Shown here: piece by piece, positions 1 through 55,708 of the stretch
How the letters are laid out: every line of letters begins with the position of its first letter
Position numbering within the stretch: position 1 is the stretch's first letter
DNA from: Orenia marismortui DSM 5156
GTDB taxonomy: Bacteria; Bacillota; Halanaerobiia; Halobacteroidales; Halobacteroidaceae
DNA: 64,000 bases
Direction: 5' to 3'
Assembly (NCBI RefSeq): GCF_000379025.1
Contig: NZ_KB900617.1
Span: forward strand, 858,820-922,819
Position numbers and translations under genes: made by a program
Notes under the pieces: model-generated
What the model was told of the DNA's origin: nothing
The model's input: only the letters and a program-made list of their open reading frames with translations
Database searches by the model: none

Positions 1-679
1 GCACCTCTCAGTTTACCATTACTTAGGTTATGGTGTTCTCTAGGTTATCCATACTTTACAGTTATGATTTCCTGTTTGTAATTCTACTAGAACCCACTAT
101 AGTACTAGTGTTTAAACCACTCAAAATTAAGATATCATTAGTAATCAAATCTTAAACTTCAATAACCTAGATATCCTTCGCTATAATCAACTTTCGTTGA
201 TTTTTTTCTCACTACTATGATATCTTCTGAACTCTAATATATCATCACTCTGGCTTTCCTGTTGGAGTTATACCATCACTTATCTCTATAGATTTCTATA
301 AAGAATTATATTAGAGATTCCCTCGGTCAATTACGTAAACCCTACAATCATTCCGACCCTAATCACACCTAGTTTTCTAACATGGGCACTTCCAGTTACA
401 CGTATTTACCAGCGCTACCTGTCTCTCCTTTGTACAGAGCCCCAAGCTAACATTGGACTTCCCCGTTTTTATGGCGGGTCGCCAAAGCTAAATGCCACCT
501 CTGGTTCACATATTGTTCCGGACTGATTGCTCATCTCAAACTCTTCAGATTCTACCTCACGGTAGACACCCTACTACTGTTGATTTCACACACCGTACTG
601 GCGAAAACAGCATGGATAGGATTTTCACCTACTGTTTACTAAATCTACGAGGCACACATAAAAAAGAAGTAGACAGAAT

Positions 680-2077
680 CTACTTCTCTCTTATTAATAA
701 ATCTGCTATTTCATTATCCCCCATCAAATCTTCAATATTTTCTAATCCTAACTCTTGGAGAGTCTTTAGAACATTCATATTGTCAAAAGGAGTCATAATT
801 AAAGAATCTTCACCTGATTCATTGATTATCATAGTAGCTTTCTCTTTGTCAATATTTGTTCTTGGCCCTCCAACACAGCCACCATCACATCCCATTCCTT
901 CTACAAAGTTAGCATCTATATATTCTTCTGAATTTAATTTGTCTAATATATCTTTACAGTCTTTAACTCCATCAACCTTTTTAGCTTTAAGTTTTATTAA
1001 CCGTCTTGGAGCTATTCTGTTAACAACAGTTTTTACGGAAAAACTCACTCCCCCTGTCCTACCATAGATTCTTCCAGCAAAAGATGCTTGATCCTTTTCA
1101 TCAGCAGGTAGATCCTTTATATCAATCTCTAAAGCTTTAAATATCTCATCTAATTCACTATAAGTTAATACAAAATCAATTGCCTCTTTTAACTCCGGCT
1201 CTTTAGCTTCAGATTTTTTAGCTATACAAGGTCCTATAAATACTACTTTAGCTTCAGGATATAATTTTTTTAACATTCTGCCTGATAAAACCATTGGTGA
1301 AACTGAGGGAGACAGATGTTCAAATACTTCTGGATATTTACTTTCAACAAGTCTAATCCAAACTGGACAGCAACAACTTGTTAAAAAGAAATCTTTTTCA
1401 CTTGTCACCAATTCATCAAATTCAAAGGCTTCTTTGATTGTTAACATATCTGCAAATAAAGCTACTTCTACCATATCTTTAAATCCCATATATTTTAATG
1501 CAGTTCTTATCTGCCCTAAAGAGATATGATCACCAAATTGACCTACTATTGATGGTGCCACTGCAGCATATATGGGGGTTTTTTCATCTTTTAAATAATT
1601 AATTATCGGCATAAATTCTATCTTATCTGCTATTGCTCCAAAGGAACAACTACTAACACAGGTTCCACAGTTTAAACATTTATCATTTACTATTAGTGGC
1701 CCTTCTCTCCTCTTATACATTTGTGCTTCATATTTACAAGCTTCATAACATTCCCTATTTTCAATCTCCTTACCACAGGATTCACATCTGCCCTCTATCT
1801 TAGTTACTATTGGCTTATCCACATGAGAAATTTCTTTAATCTTCTTTAATTCATCAGAAAATGGCCTATTTCTACTCGGATCAAGTCCCATCACCACTCG
1901 AATATGATCTTTGATAAATGAATCCTCTTCATCTGAATATCCATACTTTTCTTTAATGTATTCTACTAATTGATCTAAATCTTCACTCTTTAATAGCTTA
2001 TTATTCCATTCTCTCTTAACTACTTCTCTAAAAATCTCCATCCGTTTGCTTTGAAATTCTGTGAATTGCTCCTCCAT
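680..2077 (-). CDS. [FeFe]-hydrogenase family protein (465 aa). It has two N-terminal ferredoxin-like [4Fe-4S] motifs followed by an H-cluster domain.
   Basis: The H-cluster signature motifs are present: 'TSCCP' (L1), 'FIGPCIAKKSE' (L2, an MPCxxK variant) and 'EGMGCDGGCVGGP' (L3, an ExMACxxGCxxG variant). The ferredoxin-type motif 'CLNCGTCVSSC' is also present. Confidence 0.75.
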   Translation of the reverse strand: MEEQFTEFQSKRMEIFREVVKREWNNKLLKSEDLDQLVEYIKEKYGYSDEEDSFIKDHIRVVMGLDPSRNRPFSDELKKIKEISHVDKPIVTKIEGRCESCGKEIENRECYEACKYEAQMYKRREGPLIVNDKCLNCGTCVSSCSFGAIADKIEFMPIINYLKDEKTPIYAAVAPSIVGQFGDHISLGQIRTALKYMGFKDMVEVALFADMLTIKEAFEFDELVTSEKDFFLTSCCCPVWIRLVESKYPEVFEHLSPSVSPMVLSGRMLKKLYPEAKVVFIGPCIAKKSEAKEPELKEAIDFVLTYSELDEIFKALEIDIKDLPADEKDQASFAGRIYGRTGGVSFSVKTVVNRIAPRRLIKLKAKKVDGVKDCKDILDKLNSEEYIDANFVEGMGCDGGCVGGPRTNIDKEKATMIINESGEDSLIMTPFDNMNVLKTLQELGLENIEDLMGDNEIADLLIREK

Positions 2078-9356: not shown

Positions 9357-10367
9357 TTATTTCAACTCAAACACAATAGCAACACGCATTGTAACCAGAT
9401 TATTACCACTTCTTTTAGGTATCGGTGGAAAAGGTGCCGACCTCTTTAAGGTAGCTATGGCTTCATGATCAAGACTTGGATATCCTGAGGAATTAACCAC
9501 TCTTGATTTTTCCAACCTTCCATCACTCCTAATCACAAACTCTACTAAAGCCTTTCCTTCAAACTCTTGATCCCTTGCATATTGCGGATAACGCTTAGCA
9601 GCAGCAATCCTTCTTAGCACCATCTGGAAATAGCTTTCAGAAATCTCTTGTTTTTGCACACTATTTTGAGCTAAAGAGTTGTCAACTTCTTTAGTTGTTT
9701 GTTTTTGATTATTGGCAATTGGCCTTGACTTCTGTGCTCTTTCTTCTGCTACTTGTTCGGTAATTGATTCAGACTCCTTGACTACTTCCTCTACCTCTTC
9801 AGAAACAGGTTTTGGCTTTTCAACCGCTTCCTCTACCTCTTCAGAAACAGGTTTTGGCTTTTCAACCACTTCCTCTGCCTCTTCAGAAATAGGTTTTGGC
9901 TTTTCAACCACTTCCTCTACCTCTTCAGAAATAGGTTTTGGCTTTTCAACCACTTCCTCTACCTCTTCAGAAATAGGTTTTGGCTTTTCAACCACTTCCT
10001 CTACCTCTTCAGAAACAGGTTTTGGCTTTTCAACCACTTCCTCTACCTCTTCAGAAATGGGTTTTGGCTTTTCAACCACTTCCTCTACCTCTTCAGAAAT
10101 AGGTTTTGGCTTTTCAACCACTTCCTCTACCTCTTCAGAAATAGGTTTTGGCTTTTCAACAATCTCTTCCATATTTGTAGAGGATGGACTATTTTCTCCA
10201 ACCCGCTCTGGAGCTGGTGCTGCTGCAAACTCGATAGACATTTCTGTTGGAATTTCTACCACAGTGGAAGAATCATCATGAAATTTCCATGCTAAACCTA
10301 TCAATAAACAGTGGATTACAAGAGCAAGCAACAAAGCTGGTCGAATAAAATTATCATTTCCCTCCAT
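9357..10367 (-). CDS. tonB: TonB energy transducer carrying ten tandem 13-aa repeats (EKPKPISEEVEEVV) in its spacer.
   Basis: N-terminal TM helix; Pro/Glu/Lys-rich repeat spacer; C-terminal TonB domain '...GKALVEFVIRSDGRLEKSRVVNSSGYPSLDHEAIATLKR...'. Confidence 0.8.
   Translation of the reverse strand: MEGNDNFIRPALLLALVIHCLLIGLAWKFHDDSSTVVEIPTEMSIEFAAAPAPERVGENSPSSTNMEEIVEKPKPISEEVEEVVEKPKPISEEVEEVVEKPKPISEEVEEVVEKPKPVSEEVEEVVEKPKPISEEVEEVVEKPKPISEEVEEVVEKPKPISEEAEEVVEKPKPVSEEVEEAVEKPKPVSEEVEEVVKESESITEQVAEERAQKSRPIANNQKQTTKEVDNSLAQNSVQKQEISESYFQMVLRRIAAAKRYPQYARDQEFEGKALVEFVIRSDGRLEKSRVVNSSGYPSLDHEAIATLKRSAPFPPIPKRSGNNLVTMRVAIVFELK
9783..10172. repeat. Tandem 39-bp DNA repeat, about 10 near-identical copies ('cttcctctacctcttcagaaayaggttttggcttttcaacc'), lying inside tonB.
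   Basis: Direct reading of the sequence. The phantom plus-strand ORF 9712..10281 is its mirror image. Confidence 0.9.
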
Positions 10368-16641: not shown

Positions 16642-16817
16642 TAGAAAATATATTCTCTGATTTGCATTAGCTTATGCCTATAAAAATCAATTAGTGAAAG
16701 AAGTTAAGAGGACTGATGATTTAAAACTCTAGCTAATATACAATTCTATTATCTTAATAAATAAGAATATTAACTAATATCCCATAAAATCATTAATTAA
16801 ATTTATACTCAAAAAAT

Positions 16818-16858
16818 AAAGACTGCTGATATGAACGTTCATATCAGCAGTCTTTATT
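16818..16858. terminator. Bidirectional terminator. It is a perfect 38-bp palindrome 'aaagactgctgatatgaacgttcatatcagcagtcttt' flanked by A and T runs.
   Basis: Direct reading of the sequence. It lies downstream of the 1628-aa ATPase gene. Confidence 0.75.
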
Positions 16859-16886
16859 TTTCTTATTTAATTTTCACTACTAATCC

Positions 16887-19800: not shown

Positions 19801-21773
19801 TCAGAAGTCTTAGTTGCATCTTCAATCTTTAAAGTATTTACTATATTAATTAGCATTTCTAATTCTTCTGATACTTTGACTATCTTTTGATTCAGTTCTT
19901 TTCCATCTACAAGCTTTTCAACTGTAGTTAAATTATTCTCTATGGACTTTACCTCTTCAATATAAGGATTTAAGCTTTCATCTTTGAGGAGAAAATTAGT
20001 ACAATCCAATGATAATTTATCATTCTTCTCTTTTATCTTTTTAGATAGATCTTCAACCTTCTTCTCATCAATAAATTGTAAATCCTTAAGTGCTGAGATC
20101 TCTCCTCTGACCTTTCTTATTTTAGTCAGATATTTTACAAAGTCATTGATATTTTCAAAGCTAGTATAGCCAATAGCTTTACTAATATCCTCGACCTTCT
20201 CTTTGACCTCATTATAGCTATTAGTTGTATTCTCTTTAATCTTAGTAACCTTATCAAACTCTTTAATCGCAATTGCCCCTGCTTCTTTAATTTTAAGCAG
20301 TGACTCTTTTATATTAAAGGCTTCCTTTTTGTCTAGCCAGAAATAATTATTGATAATATTTTCAGCATCTTTTACTATATCTACATATAAACCATAGTAG
20401 CTATCATCTTTTTGAGATAAGCTATAAAGCGAATAACAATCAGCCATCAATCTAACTATCTCTTTATTTCCGATATTATATAAGAATTCGTCCTTCTTCT
20501 CATCCTTTTCTTCTAATATATCTTTTACAAAGGAAGTCTGCCAAATTTGAATGGTATGATTTCTTTTAGGCTCTTGTCCTGCTTTAAAGATAATCAATTC
20601 TCCATTATCAAAATGTGAATATCCATTACAAATTATTGGCGTTTCAATATCTTGATGAATTATATTATAATTATGAATATAGTACTCTCCTGTTACTATA
20701 TCATAGAAGATATATTGATAGTCTTCACCATTTATAGAAGCTTTTTTATTTTGAAAGACTACATTCTGATAATCTACTTGAAATTTTTTAAAACCTCCTG
20801 CTTGTAAAAAGATACCATCAGGAAAGATTATTCCATGGTCTTCTGGCAATAAAACTACTGATTTTGCTATAGAATCTATCCGCTGTACTTCCTTCGTCTT
20901 CTCATTAAAGACAATATATCTATAATTCTCTTCTTGGTAGGGTTTTATCTTAAGTAAAATAAGATTTCCTACTATAGAATAGAAGATATCAGCATCATCA
21001 AGCTTTTGATCTTTTTGCTCTACTTCTTCTGCATAAATACCTTCTCCAGAATTTGTATTATCCTCTATCTTTAAGGTTAACGTCCCACCAATAGTTTCTA
21101 CAAATATACGATCTTCAATGGAAATATGGGGATGAAGACCAGCAACCTGGTCTTCTCTTGTAGTTATTTTCCATTCTATTTCTTGTTGGGTAGGATATAA
21201 AATCTCATGACTAAACCTATTACCCAAATACTCTATACTTTTATCTTCTTTGATTACCCATTTAAAACTCTTGATATCATCTACCTTATCTCCATTTTGA
21301 AAGACCATATAAATAAAATTATCTTTCTCATGAAATTTCGTAAAAAAACTATCTTTATAATATTTATACAACTCTTTAAAATCACTTTTAAATTGCTTAT
21401 CATTTAATAAAGAATAATCTTCACGAACAAATCTATCGCCATTATAAGTATATATAGAAAATACATCACTCAATTTACTTTCTGACTTTAATCCTAAGTG
21501 AACATTATATCCCAAAATAACTTTATTTCCTACTGGGACTATATCTCTAGGGATACAACTATTTTCTGTAACTATAGCTTCACTCTTCTTTAAGGTGTTT
21601 TTTATTTCGCCATATATCTCTATTCTCTTTTGATCTAATTTCTCTAATTTTTCTTTTAACTCTTTAGTTCTTTCAGTTAATCTATTTCTAATAACATTGT
21701 AAGAAGCAAAATTCTCCTGTTTTTTTTCTTGCTTAACTTCTTCCCCCATATCTATATCTATCCCCTTACCCAA
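16887..21773 (-). CDS. Giant (1628 aa) coiled-coil protein with a C-terminal AAA+ ATPase domain of AAA_5/MoxR-like type. The N-terminal roughly 500 aa is a beta-rich domain of unknown family.
   Basis: Walker A 'SPPGYGKTT'; Walker B-like 'VMIYLDDIQ'; sensor motif 'VVMAGNPY'. A heptad-like coiled-coil region of more than 600 aa precedes the ATPase. The start codon overlaps the flotillin stop by 8 bp. Confidence 0.7.
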   Translation of the reverse strand: MGKGIDIDMGEEVKQEKKQENFASYNVIRNRLTERTKELKEKLEKLDQKRIEIYGEIKNTLKKSEAIVTENSCIPRDIVPVGNKVILGYNVHLGLKSESKLSDVFSIYTYNGDRFVREDYSLLNDKQFKSDFKELYKYYKDSFFTKFHEKDNFIYMVFQNGDKVDDIKSFKWVIKEDKSIEYLGNRFSHEILYPTQQEIEWKITTREDQVAGLHPHISIEDRIFVETIGGTLTLKIEDNTNSGEGIYAEEVEQKDQKLDDADIFYSIVGNLILLKIKPYQEENYRYIVFNEKTKEVQRIDSIAKSVVLLPEDHGIIFPDGIFLQAGGFKKFQVDYQNVVFQNKKASINGEDYQYIFYDIVTGEYYIHNYNIIHQDIETPIICNGYSHFDNGELIIFKAGQEPKRNHTIQIWQTSFVKDILEEKDEKKDEFLYNIGNKEIVRLMADCYSLYSLSQKDDSYYGLYVDIVKDAENIINNYFWLDKKEAFNIKESLLKIKEAGAIAIKEFDKVTKIKENTTNSYNEVKEKVEDISKAIGYTSFENINDFVKYLTKIRKVRGEISALKDLQFIDEKKVEDLSKKIKEKNDKLSLDCTNFLLKDESLNPYIEEVKSIENNLTTVEKLVDGKELNQKIVKVSEELEMLINIVNTLKIEDATKTSEIIDKISVLFSNLNQSKSKLKNKIDNLNAREKEAEFYSKLNLLTHSVSNYLDLSTNVEKTEDYMSKIIVQIDELESKFSDFDEFLVMLTEKRDEVISTFESKKQQLIEKKNKKIDSLSNAADRIFKSLKNRVKSFEEVSSINELLSTSPMVDKIRDIIEQLIELGDSTKADDIENKLKSLKESSIKQLKDKKELFLDENTIKFGNNHFLVNNQKPELSLLKKEDGFYFHISGTDFWEQVDAEEFSNYQEVWDQKVISENEEVYRGEFLAYNIFKNYQENNSLEELYQKDEQTLNRIIKEYIQEHSNEYYTKGVHDHDAYKILSTLVNIYWELELASYNPKVRAVANLFWQFGLIQERKEKLQNRLKTVNMISKYSKRGLIEGFIPSLAKEVESFVDENPWIETDDNQKIAEYLAKEISQNETFVLSVEAAEIYENFDNFLISKGGKKDFKKSLENLSDDLEGRYILVNEWVQSYLYEEELEFNDYIYEVLVSLILGDYSNRRAINKKSEMIIDKLVGTHKVIDNGKYQINLIDFLHKLDNFKNKIIPQYQKFQQLKFAKIEEIKNKINFNDLQPKVLTSFVRSKLIDQVYLPLIGDNLAKQIGTAGKNKRTDNMGMLLMISPPGYGKTTLMEYVANRLSMMLVKVNCPTIGHGVTSLDPAEAKNAGAREELKKLNLAFELGNNVMIYLDDIQHSNPEFLQKFISLCDGQRKIEGVYNGVSKTYEFRGKKVAVVMAGNPYTESGDKFKIPDMLANRADVYNLGDMLRENEEAFKLSYIENAVTSNTYLNNIYMKDSGDIYKLIQAIDTGDRGDIDLNGSYTEEEIEEALSVLESCLKIRDEILKVNMEYIYSSSQSDEYRTEPPFKLQGSYRNINKIVEKVVPIMNDNEIKGLVENSYINDAQTLATEAEASLLKFYEISNRMTEEQQQRWQEIKEIYLKKKSEKDGQNVIQVIQELNQIGESLKLIGNSMK

Positions 21774-23805
21774 TTATTGATTTTATTGGATCATTTTCTA
21801 CTCCAAGTTCTTTAGCTTTATCTAAGATCTTAGTTATAGCTGTGCTTGGAGTGCCATTAGAATCATCCATATATTTCATTATAGCACTAGAAATTGTAAG
21901 GTTCTTTATTGCTTCAGTATCAACATTAAAACTATTGATTAAAGTTTTTAACTGCTTTTGAAAATTATCTATATCTCCATTAAAAAATGTATCCTTTACA
22001 TCGGTTAAGACATTAGAATTATTAACCAATCTATCAACTTGCTTTCCAGCACTAATTGAATTTATTAGCTTATCAAAGAAGATTGAGTCTCCACCAACGA
22101 TATCAACATTAGCATTCTTCAATCCGTCTTTCATTATTTCTGCTTGTGCCCTTGCTATCTCTGCTTTAATACCTATCTCTGCTAGTTCTACTTCCTTATC
22201 CTTATTTAGTTTTAATTTAAACTCTTCATGCTCTTTTCCTACAGAATCCAACTTTTTCATTGCTTCTGCTTTTCTGTTAATTCCTTCAGCTTCTGCTAAT
22301 GCCTTTTCTCTAGTTACTTGTGCTTCTGATTCACCTTTAACTTTAATTGCTTTAGCTTCTGCTGCTGCTTGCATCTCTTCAACTTTAGCTTTTGAAGCAC
22401 CTTCTGCTTCAAAGGCCTCTGCCTGTGCTTTCATTACTCTAGAATCAGAGATTCCTTGTACTGAAGCTTCCTCTGCCTTAGCATCTGCCATAATCTTAAT
22501 AGACTCAGCCTTCTTATGGGAGGTCTTTAGTTCAGTATCTGCCATTATAACCTCTTTTTCAGCTAATTCTTGAGCACTTTGTTTTTCTGCCTCAGCAAGT
22601 TTGATCTTGTCAATTGCCTTAACTTCTGCATCACTTTCAGCCTTTGTAACATTTACCTGCTTATCTCTATTAGCCTGAGCTATCTCTATAGTATCCTTTA
22701 TCTTCTCTTCTTCCTCTGCTACTGATTTCTCAACCATTACTCTTTCTCTAACTACTTCTTGCATACTCTTCTTCTCTTTTTCTAAATCCTTTTCCTTAGC
22801 TATTTTGGCAAGAGAAACTACTTTCTCTCGTTCTGTTCTTTCTATTTCTGTCTCTTTTTGTGCTCTTTCTTGTTGTACAGATTCTGTTCCTTCTTTGGAT
22901 ACTCTAGCAATAATTATCTGTCTATCTTTATTCTCTTCAGCAATTGAAATCTCTTCATCAGTCTTGATTCTTGTTCTTTCTGCTTTTAATCGCTCTTCCT
23001 CTTCTACAATTTTTATTTGAGAATTTTCTCTAGATTTCATATTAGCTATTTCTCTCTTTTGCTTCTCTTCTGCTTCAGTCTGCTGTCTTTCCAATTCTAA
23101 AACAGCCTCTCTGGCACTTACATCTTGTTTAACAATTGTCTTCTCTTTATTTCTTTTAATTTCATTTGATTTCATTGCCTGAGTTGCAGTTAATTCAATA
23201 ATCTTTTTAATACCTTCTGAGTCAAGTACATTATTCTCATCTAAATTCTCTACCTTTGTCTGTTCTAAATAATCAATGGCAGCATCATCTAATACATAAC
23301 CATTAAGATCAGTTCCTATCACTTGAAGAATCTCTTCTTTAAAAGTATCTCTTTCAGTATAAAGTTGCGTAAATTCAAATTTCTTTCCAACTGTTTTTAA
23401 AGCTTCTGAAAATTTAGCATCAAAAAATTCCATTAAAGTAGCAGTATCAGATGCTTTTTTAGTTCCTAAAGATTTAGCAACTCTTAGTACATCCTTCTCT
23501 GTATGATTTACCCTTACAAAGAAAGCTACCTTGATATCGGCTCGTAAATTATCTTTACATATCAGTCCAGCTTTGCCACTTCTCTCGATCTCTACCTTTT
23601 TAATAGATACATCCATCTTCTCCCAATGGTGCAATATCGGAATAATCCAGGTTCCAGTAAAGGAGACCTTTGACCCTCCAATTCCATTCTTTACAATAGC
23701 AGTTCCTTGATCTACTTTCTTATAAAATAGTGTTAATAATATAGGAAAGGCTATAAAAATTAAAAAGGCCACTCCTCCAACAACATATAATATCATTTTT
23801 AACAT
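21766..23805 (-). CDS. floT: Flotillin-like SPFH/band-7 protein (FloT/YqiK family, 679 aa).
   Basis: N-terminal TM helix; SPFH domain '...RADIKVAFFVRVNHTEKDVLRVAKSLG...'; long Glu/Ala/Lys-rich flotillin coiled coil. Confidence 0.8.
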   Translation of the reverse strand: MLKMILYVVGGVAFLIFIAFPILLTLFYKKVDQGTAIVKNGIGGSKVSFTGTWIIPILHHWEKMDVSIKKVEIERSGKAGLICKDNLRADIKVAFFVRVNHTEKDVLRVAKSLGTKKASDTATLMEFFDAKFSEALKTVGKKFEFTQLYTERDTFKEEILQVIGTDLNGYVLDDAAIDYLEQTKVENLDENNVLDSEGIKKIIELTATQAMKSNEIKRNKEKTIVKQDVSAREAVLELERQQTEAEEKQKREIANMKSRENSQIKIVEEEERLKAERTRIKTDEEISIAEENKDRQIIIARVSKEGTESVQQERAQKETEIERTEREKVVSLAKIAKEKDLEKEKKSMQEVVRERVMVEKSVAEEEEKIKDTIEIAQANRDKQVNVTKAESDAEVKAIDKIKLAEAEKQSAQELAEKEVIMADTELKTSHKKAESIKIMADAKAEEASVQGISDSRVMKAQAEAFEAEGASKAKVEEMQAAAEAKAIKVKGESEAQVTREKALAEAEGINRKAEAMKKLDSVGKEHEEFKLKLNKDKEVELAEIGIKAEIARAQAEIMKDGLKNANVDIVGGDSIFFDKLINSISAGKQVDRLVNNSNVLTDVKDTFFNGDIDNFQKQLKTLINSFNVDTEAIKNLTISSAIMKYMDDSNGTPSTAITKILDKAKELGVENDPIKSIIG

Positions 23806-24057
23806 TAAACATTCCTCCTTGACACTATATAATTTTTATGTAAAAAAAGCTTATCTCATCTTAATATAAAAGATCTTTAGAGACATAGCTTATATAAACT
23901 TTATAAATAAATTCACTTACTTCCCACCAGCTCAAAAAACTCCTTAGCTATTAATAATCTAAAAAATTATAATACCGCCACAGACTAGACCCCAATGTCA
24001 TAAAGCTATACTGCAATAAAAAAGAACTTAATGTTAATTATCTTAAATTTATGAAAA

Positions 24058-24215
24058 GTTCCTCTCTCTTAAGAATAAGAGAGAGGTTAGGAGATTTCTT
24101 TTATCACGGAGTGGTCGTTAGACCCGTAGAGAGAGTTGTGAGTTTTTAAAACCTCGAACTCTCCCCTTAATCCCCTCTCTTCATCCCAAGCGAGGGGAAA
24201 AACATAACCCCTTTC
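24058..24215. repeat. MITE-like palindromic element, copy A. Its roughly 85-bp core is shared in reverse orientation with 55538-55619.
   Basis: Palindrome 'cctctctcttaagaataagagagagg' followed by 'ttaggagatttcttttatcacggagtggtcgttagacccgtagagagagttgtgag' and a second hairpin 'cccctc...gagggg'. Confidence 0.7.
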
Positions 24216-24322
24216 AAAACATTTGTGAATTAATGGTATTGTAAATTGATGACATTGGGCTGAATCCTGTGGCTAATAAATTACTCATAAATAGTTGAAC
24301 ATTTAACTATTTCATCTTTCTA

Positions 24323-24988
24323 TTAAATATTTAACTTCTCTTTTACAATATATAGTTCTTTCCCTTGAACTTTTGATACTACAATTATTTGACTACCCTT
24401 CAAAATGTTTTCTCCTAAAGACTTTACATTAATTACAATAGGATATCCATTAACTATAATTTCAGCCTGAGCAATATTTCCAGAATTCAAACTGGACTTC
24501 AAAACACAGCTCTGACCAATAATCTTAATATCACTTCTGTCTTCCATAGAGGCAAAAAATCCTTTCAATGGCTCTGTAAGTCCTTTAGTTATAAAAATTG
24601 ATATTATAAAATTCTGTACAAATATTAAAATCCCCAAAAAGGAGTTTGGAGAAATATTCGTATAATAAACTAACATGGTCAAAGACCATAGTACAAGAAA
24701 TAAAATAGTACCGTAAAACATAATAGGCACAGCACCAATATTTAAAAATTTTAATATCTTTACAGAATAATATTTTACTGTTCCCAGCTCTGATTTTATT
24801 TCTTCAGGATCAATTCCACCATCAAAGTACATATTAGATGAAAAGTCCACCTCTAAGTCTAATTCAAAATCTATAGTATCAAAGGAGAATATGCCCAATA
24901 TTATTAAGAGCCAGTAGGTTATTACCATAATTAAAAAAATAGAAGGTAGTATATTGATTCCAGTAAAAGCAAATTGAATATATTCCAT
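24323..24988 (-). CDS. NfeD-like (YuaF/YqiJ-type) membrane protein and flotillin partner (221 aa).
   Basis: N-terminal TM helices plus a C-terminal Gly/Val-rich beta-barrel-like domain, located upstream of the flotillin gene. Confidence 0.5.
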   Translation of the reverse strand: MEYIQFAFTGINILPSIFLIMVITYWLLIILGIFSFDTIDFELDLEVDFSSNMYFDGGIDPEEIKSELGTVKYYSVKILKFLNIGAVPIMFYGTILFLVLWSLTMLVYYTNISPNSFLGILIFVQNFIISIFITKGLTEPLKGFFASMEDRSDIKIIGQSCVLKSSLNSGNIAQAEIIVNGYPIVINVKSLGENILKGSQIIVVSKVQGKELYIVKEKLNI

Positions 24989-36110: not shown

Positions 36111-36367
36111 TTAAATTCATCATCTAAATTGCAGGTTGGTATTTTAGCTGCTAAATTACACTTTAATTTAAAAATAAGTAATTGGTGCTAACCATAACTA
36201 TAGTTAGCGACTTTGGATGAAGTCTTTAAAATTATAAACAAAAGAAATGCATATTATCCTAAAGATTATAAATATAAAAGTAGCATTTTAGGTCAAGTTA
36301 TAGGGGATATCGAAATAGTAGGTAAAAATAATGGAACTTAAACAGAATTATGTCTAAAGAAAGGAAG

Positions 36368-36400
36368 AGGCTCTAGCTAGAGCCTCTTCCTTTCTTTAAA
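36368..36400. terminator. Bidirectional terminator, perfect palindrome 'gaagaggctctagctagagcctcttc'.
   Basis: Direct reading of the sequence. It lies between the converging esterase and ferredoxin genes. Confidence 0.7.
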
Positions 36401-37213
36401 CTAATTTTTCAGCTCACCATCAATACTAATTGTAACAATTTCTACTTCTAAATCTGATTCAGCTTTTCTAACTGCTTCTTCTGCAATTCTTACCATTCCA
36501 CCACAGCAAGGAACTTCCATCCGAGCCACAGTAATACTATTTAAATCATTATTTGCAATAATAGAGGTTAATTTATTTACATAAGCCTGCCCATCATCTA
36601 GCTTCGGACAGCCCATTGCTACTGCTTTTCCTTTTAATAATTTCTGATGATAATTTGCATAAGCAATTGGAACACAATCAGCGGTAATTAATAAATCGGC
36701 ATTTTTAAAATATGGAGCCATTGGAGGTACTAAGTGAATTTGAACTGGCCATTGTTGTAATTCAGATTGAATTTCTACATTATTATTATCCTTTGAATCT
36801 TTATCCATAACCTTCATTTGCTTACCTGGACATCCACCCTTAGCCTTCTTCATTACTCTCATTCTACTTCCTGGACAGCCTCCACTACTATGATTTGAAG
36901 ATGAATCAGAATTATTAGCTTCATGCTCTTTTTGGGCTTCCATCATTTCTTCTACTGCCTCTTCACCTCTTAAACTTCTAACATGTTCTGCCGTTGCATC
37001 TAAGTCAAACTCTTTAGCTTCCCGTTCTGTAATAACTAAAGCACCTGTTGGACATTCACCTATACAATCACCAAAGCCATCACAAAAACTCTCATTTACC
37101 AACTTTGCCTTACCATTCACAATCTGTAATGCTCCTTCATGACAACCTGTTACACATAAACCACAACCATTACATTTATCTTCATCAATTTCAATAATCT
37201 GTCTTGTAGCCAT
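36401..37213 (-). CDS. 4Fe-4S dicluster ferredoxin-domain protein with a Cys-rich C-terminal domain ('...PCCGGM...').
   Basis: Motifs 'CNGCGLCVTGC' and 'CDGFGDCIGECP'. Confidence 0.6.
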   Translation of the reverse strand: MATRQIIEIDEDKCNGCGLCVTGCHEGALQIVNGKAKLVNESFCDGFGDCIGECPTGALVITEREAKEFDLDATAEHVRSLRGEEAVEEMMEAQKEHEANNSDSSSNHSSGGCPGSRMRVMKKAKGGCPGKQMKVMDKDSKDNNNVEIQSELQQWPVQIHLVPPMAPYFKNADLLITADCVPIAYANYHQKLLKGKAVAMGCPKLDDGQAYVNKLTSIIANNDLNSITVARMEVPCCGGMVRIAEEAVRKAESDLEVEIVTISIDGELKN

Positions 37214-37423: not shown

Positions 37424-37645
37424 GTGAAGAAGAAGGTATATCTTGAAAATATAGAATCAGAAGAAGATTTAGATCTAATTAAAGGGAATTTAAAAGAAAT
37501 AGATGAAATTAAATTTGTTAATGTAGATGCTAAAGATAATAGCATCACTGCTACACTAAAAAAGCAGATTACTGATCAAAAGATTAAAGAAGGAATCAAG
37601 ACTGTTAGTGACTGTCATGTAGAAAAAATTTATGATTTAGACTGA
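37424..37645 (+). CDS. Small hypothetical protein (73 aa). GTG start preceded by the SD 'aaaggaggtaa'.
   Basis: Strong SD, with a near-perfect 44-bp palindromic terminator immediately after the stop. Confidence 0.4.
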   Translation: MKKKVYLENIESEEDLDLIKGNLKEIDEIKFVNVDAKDNSITATLKKQITDQKIKEGIKTVSDCHVEKIYDLD

Positions 37646-37689
37646 AATAACCTAACTAAGGATTAGCTAATCCTTAGTTAGGTTATTTT
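37646..37689. terminator. Near-perfect 44-bp palindrome 'aaataacctaactaaggattagctaatccttagttaggttattt' (bidirectional terminator).
   Basis: Direct reading of the sequence. Confidence 0.75.
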
Positions 37690-37699
37690 TATTTTAATT

Positions 37700-38040
37700 T
37701 ATAATTTATCTCTTAGCTCTTCTATTTCATCTCTAATTTGGGCTGCTAACTCGAACTACAAGTTTGCCCTACGAGTCTTAAAAATCCAAGACTCTTCGTA
37801 AGAGTTCAATCATCATAGTTTAGTGCGTAACTCCTCAATCTCGTCCCTTATCTGAGCTGCCAGTTCAAACTCAAGGTTCTTCCTACGAGTTTTTAAAATA
37901 CGAAAAACTCTCCGTGACTATTAAGTTTACAACTTATTTCTTAATTCTTTAATTTCATCGCGAATCTGTGCCGCTAACTCAAATTCTAAATTCGCCCTAC
38001 GAGTCTTAAAAATCCAAGACTCTTCGTAAGAGTTCAATCA
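37700..38040 (-). repeat. Array of three relic copies of the uvrB 3' end, each about 63 bp encoding a UVR-motif tail. Two of the three carry an intact stop and downstream hairpin; the outermost copy (A) has only a conserved tail.
   Basis: The copies at 37700-37762, 37812-37876 and 37928-37990 encode '(stop)[18 protein letters not shown]', '[20 protein letters not shown]' and '[20 protein letters not shown]', compared with the real tail '[20 protein letters not shown]'. Hairpins occur at 37763-37811, 37877-37927 and 37991-38040. Confidence 0.85.
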
Positions 38041-40020
38041 TCATAGTTTAGTGCGTAATTCTTCAATCTCGTCTCTAATCTGAGCTGCAAGTTCAAACTC
38101 CAAATCCTTCGCTGCTTCTTCCATCTCTTCTTCTAATTCTGCTATCTCCCTTAAAATCTCTGCTTCTGACATCTCTTCTAGCTCTTCTTCATCTAGCTTG
38201 TAATCTTCTCTACTTTCAACTACCATATCAACTGGACGAAGTACCTCTCTAACCTTCTTCTTAATAGTCTGAGGAATAATATTATGTTCTTCATTAAAAT
38301 CCATCTGTAACTGACGACGACGGTTAGTCTCTCCAATAGCTTCTTTCATTGAATCGGTCATCTTATCAGCATACATAATCACTCTACCATTAGCATTACG
38401 AGCAGCTCGTCCAATTGTTTGAACCAAAGATGAAGTTGAACGTAAAAAACCTTCTTTATCTGCATCTAAAATAGCGACTAAAGACACTTCAGGAATATCT
38501 AATCCTTCTCTCAATAGATTAATACCCACCAAAACATCAAATTTACCTAAACGTAAATCTCTAATAATCTCTAATCTTTCAATAGTATCTATATCTGAAT
38601 GAAGATATCTAACTTTAATTCCTGACTTTTCTAAATAATCTGTTAGATCCTCTGCCATTCTTTTAGTTAAGGTTGTAATTAATACCCTTTCATTTCTAGT
38701 AATTACTTGATTAATCTCACCTAGCAAGTTATCAATTTGATTTTTAATAGGTCTTACCTCTATCTCTGGATCAATCAAACCAGTTGGACGAACAATCTGT
38801 TCTACAACCTGCTTACTTCTTTGAAGCTCATAATCTGCTGGTGTAGCAGAAATATATACAACTTGGTTAATCAAGCTTTCAAATTCATTGAATTTTAAAG
38901 GGCGATTGTCTAAAGCAGAAGCTAAGCGAAAACCATACTCTACCAATCTTTCTTTTCTAGATCTATCCCCTGCATACATCCCTCCAATTTGAGGAACAGT
39001 TTTATGAGATTCATCAATGACTAATAAAAAATCATCAGGAAAATAATCAAGTAAAGTTTGTGGTCTAGAACCAGAAGCCCTTCCTTCTAAATGTCGAGAA
39101 TAATTCTCTATCCCAGAACAGAACCCTACTTCTGACATCATCTCCATATCATACTTAGTTCTTTCTTCTAATCTTTGAGCTTCTAATAACTTCCCTTCAC
39201 TTCTTAACTCTTCTAACCTCTCTCCTAACTCTCTTTCAATTTCTTCCAAAGCACGTTCAATCTTATCTTCTGGAGTAACAAAGTGGCTAGCAGGATAAAT
39301 TGTCAATTCACCTAAATTACCTAAAATTTCACCTGTCAAAGTATTAATCTCTTTAATTTGATCAATCTCATCTCCAAATAATTCAACTCGATATGCCTTA
39401 TCTTCATACGCTGGAATAATTTCTATAACATCACCTTTCACCCTAAAAGTCCCTCGGGCAAAATCAATCTCATTTCTTTTATATTGAATCCCTACCAACT
39501 CACGAATTATATCACTTCGATCTTTAATCATTCCTCTTTCTAAATAACAGGTCAAATCTAAATAATCAGCTGGATTACCCAATCCATAAATACAGGAGAC
39601 ACTAGCTACAATAATTACATCATCACGCTCAAATAAAGAACTAGTTGCCGATAATCTCATCTTATCAACCTCTTCATTAATTGAAGCATCCTTTTCTATA
39701 TAAGTGTCTGTTTGTGGTACATAGGCTTCTGGTTGATAATAGTCATAATAACTAACAAAGTATCCCACTTTATTTTCAGGGAAGAACTCCTTAAATTCAC
39801 TACATAATTGTGCAGCCAAAGTCTTATTATGGGCTATAACTAAGGTAGGCTTTTTTACTTCCTCGATTACATTTGCTATAGTAAATGTCTTTCCTGAACC
39901 AGTTACCCCTAATAATGTCTGTTCCTTCATTCCTTCCTCCATGCCTGAAACTAATTTTTCAATTGCTTTAGGTTGGTCGCCTTTAGGAGAATACTCTGAA
40001 ACCAGCTTAAAATTAGGCAT
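38041..40020 (-). CDS. uvrB: Excinuclease ABC subunit B.
   Basis: Helicase motifs '...[10 protein letters not shown]...' and DEAD-like 'VIDESH'; UvrB interaction domain; C-terminal UVR motif. Confidence 0.95.
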
Positions 40021-48535: not shown

Positions 48536-49740
48536 TCATTGTAAAATCAAATTGAACAAAATAAAAATAGCCATAGGGCACCAACCTGTAATATAATTAA
48601 ATCACCACAAAATAACCAGTTACAGGAGGGTGCACACTATGACTTACTTAAATGATACACCAAAATCCCGAAAAAATAAACACCTAAATGCTTATGAACG
48701 TGGTCAAATTGCATTATTACATTCCGAAGGAATGAATCCAAATGCTATTGCAAAACGTTTAGGTAGAGCTTCTAATACCATTAGAAACGAACTAAAACGT
48801 GGTACAGTTTCTCAAATTAAAGCTAATAAAAAGATTATGGTCTATTACCCTGACACTGGTCAAAGAGTTTATGAATCTAATCGCAAGAATTGTGGTCCTA
48901 AATTTAAACTTTTGCAATGTGAAGAGTTCATTGATTATGTTATAGAACAGTTCTACGAAAAAGGACATTCTCTTGATGCTATATGTGGTGCAGCAAAACT
49001 TCATAATAAATTTCCAAAGCCAGAGATGGTATCTACTAAAACGCTTTATAACTACGTCAACGCTGGATTATTGACAATTAAAAACATTGATTTACCTTTG
49101 AAGCTTAAGCGTTCTTCAAAAAGAAAGCACACTAAAAATAATAAAAAGAAGCTTGGTACAAGTATAGATCAACGCCCTGAAAGTATTAATAATCGTAGTG
49201 AGTTTGGTCACTGGGAAATTGACACTATGATAGGCAAAAAGACTAAAAATGAATCAGTTTTACTTACTATGACAGAACGTATGACTCGTAAAGAAATTAT
49301 TCGTAAAATCCCTGCCAAGACTGCTCAAGCAGTTCAAGATGCTATTTTAAAGCTCGTTAATGAAGCAGGAGATTGTTTTTCCAAAGTATTTAAAAGCTTC
49401 ACTTGTGATAATGGCTCTGAGTTTGCTCAAATGTCATTTTTAGAGCAAATTAGTGATACTAAAGTATACTTTGCACATCCATATTCATCATGGGAAAGAG
49501 GAACTAATGAGCGTCATAATGGTCTTATAAGACGCTTTATCCCTAAAGGTAATAGTCTAAACCAATTCTCTATTGAATCTATTGCTAGAGTCCAAAACTG
49601 GTGCAATACTTTACCAAGAAAAATCTTAGATTACCTAACCCCTGATGAAATATTTGAAGATAAATTAAAACAAATTCTTTATGACTAAATAACCAAATTA
49701 TTACAGTTTGAAAATGTTCAATTTATTATTGCAATTTAAG
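48536..49740 (+). mobile_element. IS30-family insertion sequence, copy 1 (about 1.2 kb), with imperfect terminal inverted repeats around 'AAATTGAAC'.
   Basis: The ends align with copy 2 at 54227-55434: 'ttcattgtaaaatcaaattgaac...' versus '...gttcaatttattattgcaatttaag'. Confidence 0.8.
48630..49688 (+). CDS. IS30-family transposase (352 aa).
   Basis: N-terminal HTH 'YERGQIALLHSEGM'; DDE core carrying the IS30 signature 'GHWEIDT...CDNGSEF...WERGTNE'. Confidence 0.9.
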   Translation: MHTMTYLNDTPKSRKNKHLNAYERGQIALLHSEGMNPNAIAKRLGRASNTIRNELKRGTVSQIKANKKIMVYYPDTGQRVYESNRKNCGPKFKLLQCEEFIDYVIEQFYEKGHSLDAICGAAKLHNKFPKPEMVSTKTLYNYVNAGLLTIKNIDLPLKLKRSSKRKHTKNNKKKLGTSIDQRPESINNRSEFGHWEIDTMIGKKTKNESVLLTMTERMTRKEIIRKIPAKTAQAVQDAILKLVNEAGDCFSKVFKSFTCDNGSEFAQMSFLEQISDTKVYFAHPYSSWERGTNERHNGLIRRFIPKGNSLNQFSIESIARVQNWCNTLPRKILDYLTPDEIFEDKLKQILYD

Positions 49741-50002
49741 AAATTTTTATAAATTAAATCTATTTTTAAAATAAGTCTATAGTTTTAAATTTAATTAACT
49801 TTTCATATTTATATTACAGATTAAATTATTACTTTCTATTTAGTTCTTATTTAAGAAAACTAATAGAAACATTTATCTAATAATATTTACTCTCTATAAT
49901 TTTTAGCTATTAGACTATATTTAAAGGCTAAGGTTATAAAAAATAGCCATAAGAAAAAATTACAAGTATTAAATATTTTATTTGGATAATCCTAATAAAA
50001 AC

Positions 50003-53028: not shown

Positions 53029-53053
53029 ATTTAATAATTGATAAATATAAAAA

Positions 53054-53086
53054 AGCAGTTGAGAAAATCCTCAACTGCTTTTTTAT
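53054..53086 (+). terminator. Rho-independent terminator 'agcagttgag-aaaatc-ctcaactgct' followed by T6.
   Basis: Direct reading of the sequence. It lies downstream of the small glycyl-radical ORF. Confidence 0.75.
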
Positions 53087-53201
53087 CTCTCATCTCTCAT
53101 CTCTCATCTCTCATCTCTCATCTCTCATCTCTCATCTCTCATCTCTCATCTCTCATCTCTCATCTATTATCTATTATCTATTATCTATTATCTATTATCT
53201 A
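53086..53201. repeat. Two adjacent heptanucleotide microsatellites, (TCTCTCA)x11 then (TCTATTA)x5.
   Basis: Direct reading of the sequence. They lie between the convergent nrdDG-small-ORF unit and pfkA. Confidence 0.95.
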
Positions 53202-53205
53202 TCCT

Positions 53206-54180: not shown

Positions 54181-54226
54181 GCACCCCCTGAATTTAATTT
54201 TACCTTTATCTATTTTTTTATTCTTA

Positions 54227-55434
54227 CTTAAATTGCAATATTAAATTGAACTAGTTTCAAACTGTAATAATTTGGTTAATTAGTTATATAGAATTTCTCT
54301 TAGTTGATCTTCAAAAGCTTCATCAGGAGTTAGGTATCCTAAAATTTTTCTTGGTAGAGTATTACACCAGTTTTGAACTCTAGCAATAGATTCAATAGAG
54401 AATTCACTTATACTTCTGCCTTTAGGTATAAAACGTCTTATGAGACCATTATGACGTTCATTGGTACCTCTTTCCCATGATGAATAGGGATGAGTAAAAT
54501 ATACTTTTGTATCAACTATTTCTTCTATAACACCTAGCTCTGAAAATTCAGAGCCATTATCGCAGGTAAAGCTTTTAAATACAGTAGAAAAAAGCTCTCC
54601 AGAGTCTTTGATTAGTTTTAATATAGCATTTTGAACAGATTCAGCTGTTTTACCAGGAATTTTACGAATGATTTCTTTACGAGTCATGCGCTCTGTCATA
54701 GTGAGTAAAACTTCATCATTTTTATTCTTTTTACCAATAACAGTGTCAATTTCCCAATGCCCAAATTCACTGCGATCATTAATATTTTCAGGGCGTTCAT
54801 CGATACTTGTGCCAAGTTTCTTTTTATTACGCTTAAGACATTTTGATTTTGAAGAACGTTTAAGCTTCAATGGCAAATCAATATTGCTAATCTGAAGTAG
54901 TCCAAGATCTATATAGTTATATAGAGTTTTAGTGCATACCATCTCTGACTTTGAGAATTTGTTATGCAGCTTTGCTGCACCACAAATAGAATCAAGAGAT
55001 TGTTTATGCTCGCAAAATAACTCTATAACATAATCAATGAATGTTTCACATTCTAAAAGCTTAAATTTCGGTCCGCAATTTTTACGATTAGATTCATAAA
55101 CTTTTTGACCAGCGTCAGGGAAGTAAATCTCTACAGTTTTATTGCCTTTAATTTGGGAAACTGTACCACGCTTTAACTCGTTTCTAATTGTATTAGAAGC
55201 TCTACCTAGACGTTTTGCAATAGCATAAGGCGACATTCCTTCGGAATGTAACAATGCAATTTGACCACGCTCATAAGCATTTAGGTGTTTATTTTTTCGG
55301 GATTTTGGTGTATCATTTAAGTAGTCCATAGTGTGCACCCTCCTGTAATTTTTTGTTTTGTGGTGATTCAATTATATTACAGTTTGGTCCACTATGGGCA
55401 TTTTTTTATTAGTTCAATTTAATTATACAATCAA
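54227..55434 (-). mobile_element. IS30-family insertion sequence, copy 2. It is inverted relative to copy 1 and diverged from it.
   Basis: Terminal sequences align with copy 1. The transposase is about 85% identical by eye. Confidence 0.8.
54280..55329 (-). CDS. IS30-family transposase. The start is taken at 'MDYLNDTPKS', which aligns with the copy 1 start.
   Basis: Same HTH and DDE motifs as copy 1. Confidence 0.9.
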   Translation of the reverse strand: MDYLNDTPKSRKNKHLNAYERGQIALLHSEGMSPYAIAKRLGRASNTIRNELKRGTVSQIKGNKTVEIYFPDAGQKVYESNRKNCGPKFKLLECETFIDYVIELFCEHKQSLDSICGAAKLHNKFSKSEMVCTKTLYNYIDLGLLQISNIDLPLKLKRSSKSKCLKRNKKKLGTSIDERPENINDRSEFGHWEIDTVIGKKNKNDEVLLTMTERMTRKEIIRKIPGKTAESVQNAILKLIKDSGELFSTVFKSFTCDNGSEFSELGVIEEIVDTKVYFTHPYSSWERGTNERHNGLIRRFIPKGRSISEFSIESIARVQNWCNTLPRKILGYLTPDEAFEDQLREILYN

Positions 55435-55500: not shown

Positions 55501-55708
55501 TAGTGTACAGTTGACAGTTTACAGCTAAGTTCAAAAGCTCACAACTCTCTCTACGGGTCTAACGACCACTCCGTGATAAAAGAAATCTCCTAACCTCTCT
55601 CTTTATCTAAAGAGAGAGGAATTTTTAAAGTCCTCTCTTAAGAATAAGAGGGGATTTAGGGGAGTTGTGATGTCTTGACTTTTAATTTTAACTGTCAACT
55701 GTACACTA
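55501..55708. mobile_element. MITE-like element, copy B, bounded by 21-bp terminal inverted repeats ('tagtgtacagttgacagttta' and 'ttaactgtcaactgtacacta'). It carries the conserved core and palindromes shared with 24058-24215.
   Basis: Terminal inverted repeats match 20 of 21 positions. The internal core 55538-55619 is the reverse complement of 24061-24142. Confidence 0.7.

Follow-up and report, generated by a model that had tools for sequence, protein, structure and literature searches.

Two permuted hairpin mosaics in Orenia marismortui probably belong to a non-coding intergenic repeat family with a BoxC-type triplex motif

What are the two look-alike palindromic stretches that lie 31.4 kb apart, in inverted orientation, in this part of the Orenia marismortui DSM 5156 genome? 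We analysed the whole stretch of 64,000 nucleotides around them (hereafter the window; 31% G+C), for which a preliminary description, read from the letters, had proposed a mobile family of miniature inverted-repeat transposable elements (MITEs) or, alternatively, a small structured RNA. The reading that we consider fairly probable is that the two stretches, copies A and B, are members of a family of intergenic DNA repeats of the genus Orenia that are non-coding and prone to form structures, each member being a mosaic of hairpin modules that includes an intrastrand triplex motif of the BoxC/PIT/TM_ECO type.

Both copies were found where they had been placed, and the core that they share is real: positions 24054-24150 (copy A, plus strand) and 55530-55626 (copy B, minus strand) form a 97-nt inverted repeat, 94% complementary, with no third occurrence in the 64-kb window. 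In copy A, the core runs from a CT/GA hairpin (hp1) through a spacer to a GC-rich bulged hairpin (H), and then to GAGAGAGTTGTGAG. The GC-rich stretch is shared as 38 identical nt, present twice in the window against zero occurrences expected from 100 shuffles; the CT/GA palindromes are also there, at 24061-24086 in copy A and 55594-55619 in copy B, as is the GAGGGGATTTAGGGGAG-type sequence common to the two copies (18 nt, 94%). All neighbour genes are on the minus strand, and the two copies have opposite orientations relative to these co-directional genes. Both are thus intergenic elements with no orientation bias towards genes, a feature of BoxC/PIT/TM repeats.

A point missed by the direct reading of the sequence is that the modules are permuted. 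The element is a mosaic of three separable modules, hp1, H and a triplex unit, and the GAGGGGATT.AGGGGAG module is found on the 3' side of the core in copy A and on its 5' side in copy B, with the same strand sense; copies A and B are permuted because the triplex unit lies on opposite sides of the core. The separability of the modules is seen in a relative that lacks H and in the occurrence of H on its own near uvrB, both described below. The whole mosaic sits centrally in a longer imperfect palindrome.

In the triplex unit, ATTWA and then a G-rich run come after a second CT/GA hairpin. It was characterized with an ITxF-like script following the published ITxF criteria, that is, a pyrimidine stem, a loop of 1-6 nt, a complementary purine stem, a second loop of 1-6 nt and a mirror third strand (G on G, A or T on A), with stems of at least 8 nt and at most one mismatch. 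As a positive control, the script recovered both published TM_ECO motifs of the E. coli hrpB-mrcB spacer. Copies A and B were the only sites in the window with such motifs, apart from a weak AT-rich match within nupC; none was found in 20 shuffles of the window, and the background rate was 3 motifs in 763 kb of non-Orenia DNA. The copy A unit (24157-24198, minus strand) reads TCCCCTCGCTT-GGGATG-AAGAGAGGGGA-TTA-AGGGGAGAGTT and contains 11 triplets, with one Watson-Crick mismatch and no third-strand mismatch, and the copy B unit (55631-55667, plus strand) reads TCCTCTCTTA-AGAA-TAAGAGGGGA-TTT-AGGGGAGTTG and contains 10 triplets. The G-rich run is the mirror image of the hairpin's purine arm, so that the unit has the layout by which an intrastrand purine-motif triplex is defined. 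In every member, the third strand tracks the purine arm (AAGAGAGGGGA/AGGGGAGAGTT, TAAGAGGGGA/AGGGGAGTTG, AGGAGAGGGC/AGGGTGAGGT and TAGGAGAAGGG/GGGATGAGGTG).

Repeats of the TM_ECO/BoxC/PIT kind are abundant in E. coli, Enterobacter and cyanobacteria; they are intergenic, occur in either orientation and sometimes as inverted pairs, are not linked to known mobile elements, vary between strains and are located where rearrangement greatly exceeds that of control spacers (Holder et al. 2015, PMC4666352). The Orenia units have the same order of pyrimidine arm, loop, purine arm, loop and mirrored G-rich strand, and the elements resemble these repeats in their intergenic position, either orientation, presence or absence between strains, rearranged loci and lack of a product or known mobilising enzyme. 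However, neither window unit matches the TM_ECO consensus CCCTCNCCC N3-6 GGGNGAGGG N3 GGGNGAGGG: one reads CCCCTCGCTT..AAGAGAGGGG ATTAA GGGGAGAGTT and the other CCTCTCTT..AAGAGGGG ATTTA GGGGAGTT, the departure being due to their higher AT content (CCTCTCTT/AAGAGGGG versus CCCTCNCCC/GGGNGAGGG). Unlike TM_ECO, each window copy has one good triplex unit within a mosaic of hp1, H and heptamer arms, and the host, an anaerobe of the Halanaerobiales, has 31% G+C. Judged by sequence, the window copies fall in the same class as TM_ECO but outside its subfamily; we filed them as related to TM_ECO, and not as TM_ECO itself, because they are AT-richer and the triplex unit is only one module of the mosaic.

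The two remaining modules, hp1 and H, make up most of the conserved 97-nt core, and neither is a triplex motif. hp1 is a perfect CT/GA hairpin of 10-11 bp, CCTCTCTCTTA-AGAA-TAAGAGAGAGG in copy A, and did not pass the triplex-motif test, as its third strand GGAGATTTCT matches at 5 positions only; it is a second CT/GA hairpin with a decayed third strand. In both window copies, hp1 is followed by a T-run when the strand opposite to the core is read. In copy A, AACTTTTCAT follows hp1 on the minus (gene) strand, and the hairpin with this T-rich tail scores terminator-like. H, which did not pass the triplex-motif criteria either, has the plan ACG-RAG(N)-stem-loop-stem'-YCGTAG, with a fixed base and a 5' bulge; it is found at 24106-24129 in copy A (plus strand; ACG-GAGT-GGTC-GTTA-GACC-CGT-AG) and, by motif scan, at 55551-55574 in copy B (minus strand). 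Two sequences, GAGAGTTGTGAGTTTT / AAAACCTCGAACTCTC, form a long-range pairing in the folds of copy B that closes the element as a whole; in copy A, they are adjacent and form a local hairpin (24131-24163; inverted-repeat search and folds). The closing-stem sequence is common within each lineage (CACAACTC/GAGTTGTG in O. marismortui and CCTCACCC/GGGATGAGG in a metagenomic lineage, L057, described below). The G-rich run of the triplex unit is complementary to CTCACAACTCTC, which adjoins H.

H was also found away from the two copies. Its sites are 24106-24129, 55551-55574, 37769-37799, 37883-37915 and 37997-38027 in the window, 11377-11405 in L057 and 4395-4422 in contig L056; the base (ACG/CGT, the RAG bulge and the 3' AG) is fixed and the upper stem varies with compensation (GGTC/GACC, GTCT/AGAC, GTCTT/AAGAC, GTTTTT/AAAAAC). 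The H pattern gave one chance-like match in 1.56 Mb of non-Orenia DNA and no match in viral contigs. From these scans, H is a recurring Orenia-specific motif, and it has no match among Rfam families. The three further window sites belong to an unusual arrangement downstream of uvrB (38041-40020), where the uvrB 3' end, encoding the UVR domain, is present four times in the same reading frame (37693-38110, minus strand). The first of these copies stops in TGA TGA directly before a hairpin, and copies 2-4 each have an H hairpin (ACGRAG..YCGTAG) before them: 37997-38027, directly after the uvrB stop codons and found by motif scan, 37883-37915 (a variant, ACGGAGAGTTTTTCGTATTTTAAAAACTCGTAG) and 37769-37799 (ACGAAGAGTCTTGGATTTTTAAGACTCGTAG), all on the minus strand. 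The copies are 63-87% identical in DNA and encode nearly the same peptides, so their differences are mostly synonymous. The uvrB 3' end looks like the scars of repeated integration or replacement. A SECIS-like role for the hairpin after the UGA-UGA was set aside as speculative, H being found also outside a coding context, and Rfam searches with the uvrB-side hairpins gave only chance-level matches at E <= 10.

We then asked whether the repeats are a dispersed family, as had been proposed, or a one-off. In agreement with the preliminary description, copy A is located in the spacer that separates the NfeD-like gene (24323-24988) from the next gene (21766-23805); the name flotillin given to the latter gene is weakly backed, by a FloT match of 17.6 bits against a cutoff of 700. 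The protein of this downstream gene is 93% identical to that of Orenia metallireducens. The window and a second O. marismortui strain (GCA_004365685.1) are 96-98% identical in DNA, and copy A is part of a 423-nt strain-specific segment (23897-24319): BLAST blocks against contig L045 stop at 23896 and resume at 24320, and 61 unrelated or poorly alignable nt take the place of the segment in the second strain. Copy A is absent from GCA_004365685.1 and from O. metallireducens and is present in two other read sets, the assemblies of which break within the core. Copy B is flanked on one side by nupC and on the other by an IS30-type insertion sequence (54208-55431) located just upstream of pfkA; the copy is kept at the same place in GCA_004365685.1, where the IS30 is missing.

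Relatives were found at other loci. In L057, an Orenia lineage from a JGI metagenome whose NupC is 90% identical, a diverged member (L057-1) occupies the same nupC-pfkA slot with the module order of copy B. Its stems all differ in sequence and all still pair, the T-run after hp1 is absent, and its triplex unit, CCCTCTCCT GAGATG AGGAGAGGG CTA GGGTGAGGT, is almost the E. coli consensus. The same contig carries a second member (L057-2), which separates two genes whose O. marismortui counterparts overlap. This member combines the closing stem with two CT/GA hairpins, lacks H, and is followed by an arm about 80% like the heptamer arm of copy B. The count is two copies in the 64-kb window and two in 12 kb of L057. 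A further relative, from a GC-richer organism (L150; metagenome contig WNFI01581421.1, 795-890), contains two BoxC-like triplex units, arranged as an inverted pair and enclosed by a closing stem; inverted pairs are frequent in the BoxC kind. On the reverse complement, its ACCTCACCCCTAACCCCTCTCC..GGAGAGGGG reads almost like ACCCTCACCCTAACCCTCTCCC..GGGAGAGGG of E. coli BoxC (PMC4666352, Table 1), and the L057 and L150 relatives are near-identical to E. coli BoxC in plan and largely so in sequence. The L150 element is in-frame within a GNAT acetyltransferase ORF (538-1053, minus strand), to which it adds 28 residues (TSPLTPLRRAERGSSPSPQVEKGLGDEV), whereas TM_ECO is reported to be always intergenic (PMC4666352).

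Sequence searches set the scale of the family. The core 20-mer GGAGTGGTCGTTAGACCCGT had no match in viral, genome (185,579 species representatives) or JGI metagenome collections, which means only that it is not in other species representatives, because GCA_004365685.1 carries it. BLAST of both copies against plasmids and phages returned nothing, and a metagenome search with the pattern GGGGATGAGGTN{0,3}AGGTTTT gave at least 120 matches at a chance-like level, L150 alone being real among the matches listed. The term dispersed family refers here to four or five loci, since two copies were counted and the 20-mer is absent from the collections.

With two copies in the window, inverted and 31.4 kb apart, and with no match in public scans, the pair might have arisen by local duplication or been left behind by an inversion of 31 kb. 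We consider this very improbable. On either side of each copy, the genes follow the order seen in the strains and species without copy A, and the triplex units of A and B are too different for a recent copy, yet copy A is younger than the strain split. In another Orenia lineage and in a metagenome contig, related members occupy other loci. The relatives at two loci of the L057 lineage thus speak for a dispersed repeat family, and against a one-off local duplication.

The next question is whether this family is one of MITEs, that is, non-autonomous elements that are bounded by terminal inverted repeats, depend for their movement on a transposase supplied in trans from elsewhere in the genome, and insert with a short target duplication. 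Copy B is indeed bounded by inverted ends, although these are perfect over 19 nt (55501-55519 / 55690-55708) and not over the 21 nt first given; they extend to 52 nt at 77%. The left arm is composed of heptamers (AGTGTAC AGTTGAC AGTT..). The terminal arm (TAGTGTAYAGTTGAYAGTT..AAGTTCAAAA; TAGTGTAYAGTTGAYAGTT...TTCAAAA) is about 80% conserved as the right arm beside L057-2, at a different locus, and this recurrence hints at defined ends and so at a transposase. Copy A, a strain-specific insert, lacks the ends of copy B, as had been noted, and has an inverted repeat of its own that had escaped notice, an unrelated, imperfect pair of 25 nt (23977-24001 / 24249-24273; GCCACAGACTAGACCCCAATGTCAT) that reaches 44 nt at 70% when extended; a possible TATTA flanks the unit at either end. 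The small size, missing coding capacity and strong fold are also typical of MITEs.

Several results speak against classical MITEs. No terminal repeat is common to the family: TAGTGTACAGTTGACAGTT was found at copy B only, GCCACAG..CCCAATGTCAT of copy A is unrelated to it, and L057-1 has no inverted-repeat ends. The copy B ends are tandem heptamers, of which one unit varies between strains. When the copy A inverted-repeat unit was removed and the remainder realigned to the empty site of the sister strain, no clear target-site duplication was seen; the TATTA duplication is not established because the spacer without the unit still fails to align with the empty site. The permuted module order of A and B would be hard to obtain by fixed-end cut-and-paste. 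The rest of the window consists of housekeeping genes, and among the window genes there is no transposase other than those of IS30, no reverse transcriptase and no Y1/HUH gene, and no parent insertion sequence shares the element ends, those of IS30 being unrelated. What stands of the proposal is a non-coding, palindromic, dispersed family in which copy A is polymorphic between strains and the copy B arm recurs; the unshared ends and the permuted order do not fit it, and with no clear target duplication and no parent insertion sequence in the window, the classical MITE is only partly supported. We regard it as unlikely. Two related candidates were rejected: an IS30 end or an IR-IR junction, because IS30 ends at 55431 and has unrelated repeats, and a DGR, there being no A-specific differences and no reverse transcriptase.

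Strong folding could also point to a structured RNA, either an sRNA gene or a cis element, in which case the conserved functional locus would be copy B, upstream of pfkA, and copy A would have been duplicated recently. The folds are strong (z = -4 to -10), and copy B and L057-1 retain the same multi-branch fold, in which a closing stem encloses two or three hairpins, despite their changed stems, a comparison made on single-sequence folds; pair counts from RNAalifold (MAFFT alignment, four members) were unusable because the diverged hairpins were mis-registered. Copy B is moreover conserved above its flanks, a T-run follows hp1 in both copies, and copy A has a promoter-like site at 24229-24201. 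However, Rfam 15 gave no match at the gathering threshold over the whole window, and around both copies it gave only chance-level matches of at most 21 bits even at E <= 10. The strand that folds better differs between members, so that no consistent strand emerges; the modules are permuted and the copies lie in opposite orientation to the flanking genes; the T-run is missing in L057, and copy B has no promoter comparable to that of copy A. In an RNA fold, the mirror-repeat third strand would have no role, and purine-motif triplexes do not form in RNA (PMC4666352). The element is also absent from the O. metallireducens strains at the same spacer, and the L150 relative is in-frame within a protein gene. 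Taken together, these data make a small structured RNA, the alternative raised in the preliminary description, distinctly unlikely. A riboswitch or leader was rejected on position and orientation.

Coding potential was considered as well. The only ORF over copy A (32 aa) is absent from the records and is interrupted by a stop in copy B, leaving no conserved coding potential, and six-frame peptides of the element, used as protein queries in search of mis-called ORFs over other copies, had no match. There is no sign of a product from the element. Any effect of copy A on its neighbours would most likely be incidental, for example through the predicted terminator-like hairpin between the NfeD-like gene and the downstream gene.

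The repeat-family reading, which we favour, brings the variability of the host spacers into focus. The content of the nupC-pfkA spacer differs in every Orenia lineage examined, through the IS30 (in the window only), a loop flip, a 7-nt heptamer indel and a different insert in each O. metallireducens strain. In GCA_004365685.1, one arm of copy B has one extra 7-nt heptamer and the 4-nt loop of hp1 is exactly reverse-complemented (AGAT vs ATCT). Together with the NfeD spacer (423 nt in the window versus 61 nt), this describes rearranged host loci on the basis of these two spacers. By analogy with the E. coli TM_ECO loci, unwinding of the DNA would let the modules fold into hairpins or triplexes; such structures could cause polymerase stalling, template switching and recombination, by which elements might be duplicated, permuted, flipped or replaced, making the host spacers hypervariable. 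The exact flip of the hp1 loop is the kind of change that recombination between hairpin arms would be expected to give.

Within this variable spacer, copy B itself is conserved, with 3/208 substitutions between strains versus 11/132 in the surrounding spacer (Fisher p = 0.003). Given this conservation and the presence of a member in the same slot in two Orenia clades, with stems still pairing, selection on a function fits at least as well as junk DNA. A more speculative possibility, which we hold to be rather improbable, is that H, Orenia-specific and with an upper stem that changes with compensation, is the recognition site of a hairpin-specific recombinase or transposase that moves or joins modules; repeated integration at the uvrB 3' end would then each time have left H and a displaced UVR-domain coding end, differing mostly at synonymous sites. 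Alternatively, in the same low range, copy B would be a selected DNA or RNA structure upstream of pfkA.

Other families of bacterial repeats offer partial parallels to the Orenia elements. The REP/BIME/REPINs of Enterobacteria and Pseudomonas are hairpin modules of varying order and orientation, often located after stop codons and species-specific in sequence; a REP is an imperfect palindrome of 20-40 nt with a 5' GTAG head and is associated with a Y1 (RAYT) transposase gene. Short hairpin modules in varying order and orientation are the common feature. In contrast, H has CGTAG at its 3' end (CTACG at the 5' end of the other strand) and not a 5' GTAG head, the Orenia modules are CT/GA-rich where REPs are GC palindromes, and no RAYT/Y1_Tnp-type gene was found among the window ORFs. 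Bacterial MITEs (Correia/NEMIS, RUP, bcr1, Nezha) are similar in being non-coding, 100-300 nt long and strongly folded, with inverted repeats and strain polymorphism, and differ in that the Orenia elements have unshared ends, a permuted interior, no target duplication shown and no parent insertion sequence in the window. Rickettsia palindromic elements (RPE) insert in-frame into protein genes, as the L150 relative does with its 28 additional residues; the two groups are unrelated in sequence, and both window copies lie outside genes.

If the favoured reading holds, the BoxC/triplex-motif class would extend from Proteobacteria and cyanobacteria to a low-G+C halophilic anaerobe, with the triplex unit as a separable module of a larger mosaic. 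The two loci would provide natural examples of effects on spacers, namely gain and loss, module permutation, hairpin-loop flip and nearby insertion of an IS, and Orenia, with few and diverse copies, could suit the study of how BoxC-type repeats spread. For annotation, such stretches break short-read assemblies, and no gene or sRNA should be called on them without evidence.

The nupC-pfkA spacer shows further variation. Its centre is wholly different between two O. metallireducens strains and from O. marismortui, with unrelated inserts: contig L048 (4290-4410) has a GTAGGG..CCCTAC hairpin around GGTCGAGACC, and L056 (4290-4610) has several other hairpins, one of them H-like. This spacer is a hot spot of small palindromic inserts across the genus. 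The window contains two IS30-family copies (HTH_38 + rve; 54208-55431 and 48558-49759), inverted and 82-85% alike. The first ends 27 nt before the pfkA start and is absent from the sister strain, so that the insertion has separated pfkA from its native upstream sequence in the window strain. Downstream of pfkA, tandem heptamers (53085-53200) form a polypurine/polypyrimidine tract of about 12 ATCTCTC units followed by about 5 ATCTATT units. In the sister strain, 53029-53205 is replaced by about 1.7 kb (L047, 12599-14340) encoding a 391-aa HTH protein together with fragments of GIY-YIG and NrdD.

Elsewhere in the window, long perfect or near-perfect intergenic palindromes at 16789-16884, 36352-36401 and 37626-37707 are unrelated to the element family and are probably bidirectional terminators. 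A 42-nt tandem repeat of about 9-13 units (9701-10246; 64-90% identity) lies within a TonB-like ORF (9357-10367), in which it presumably encodes a repetitive linker.
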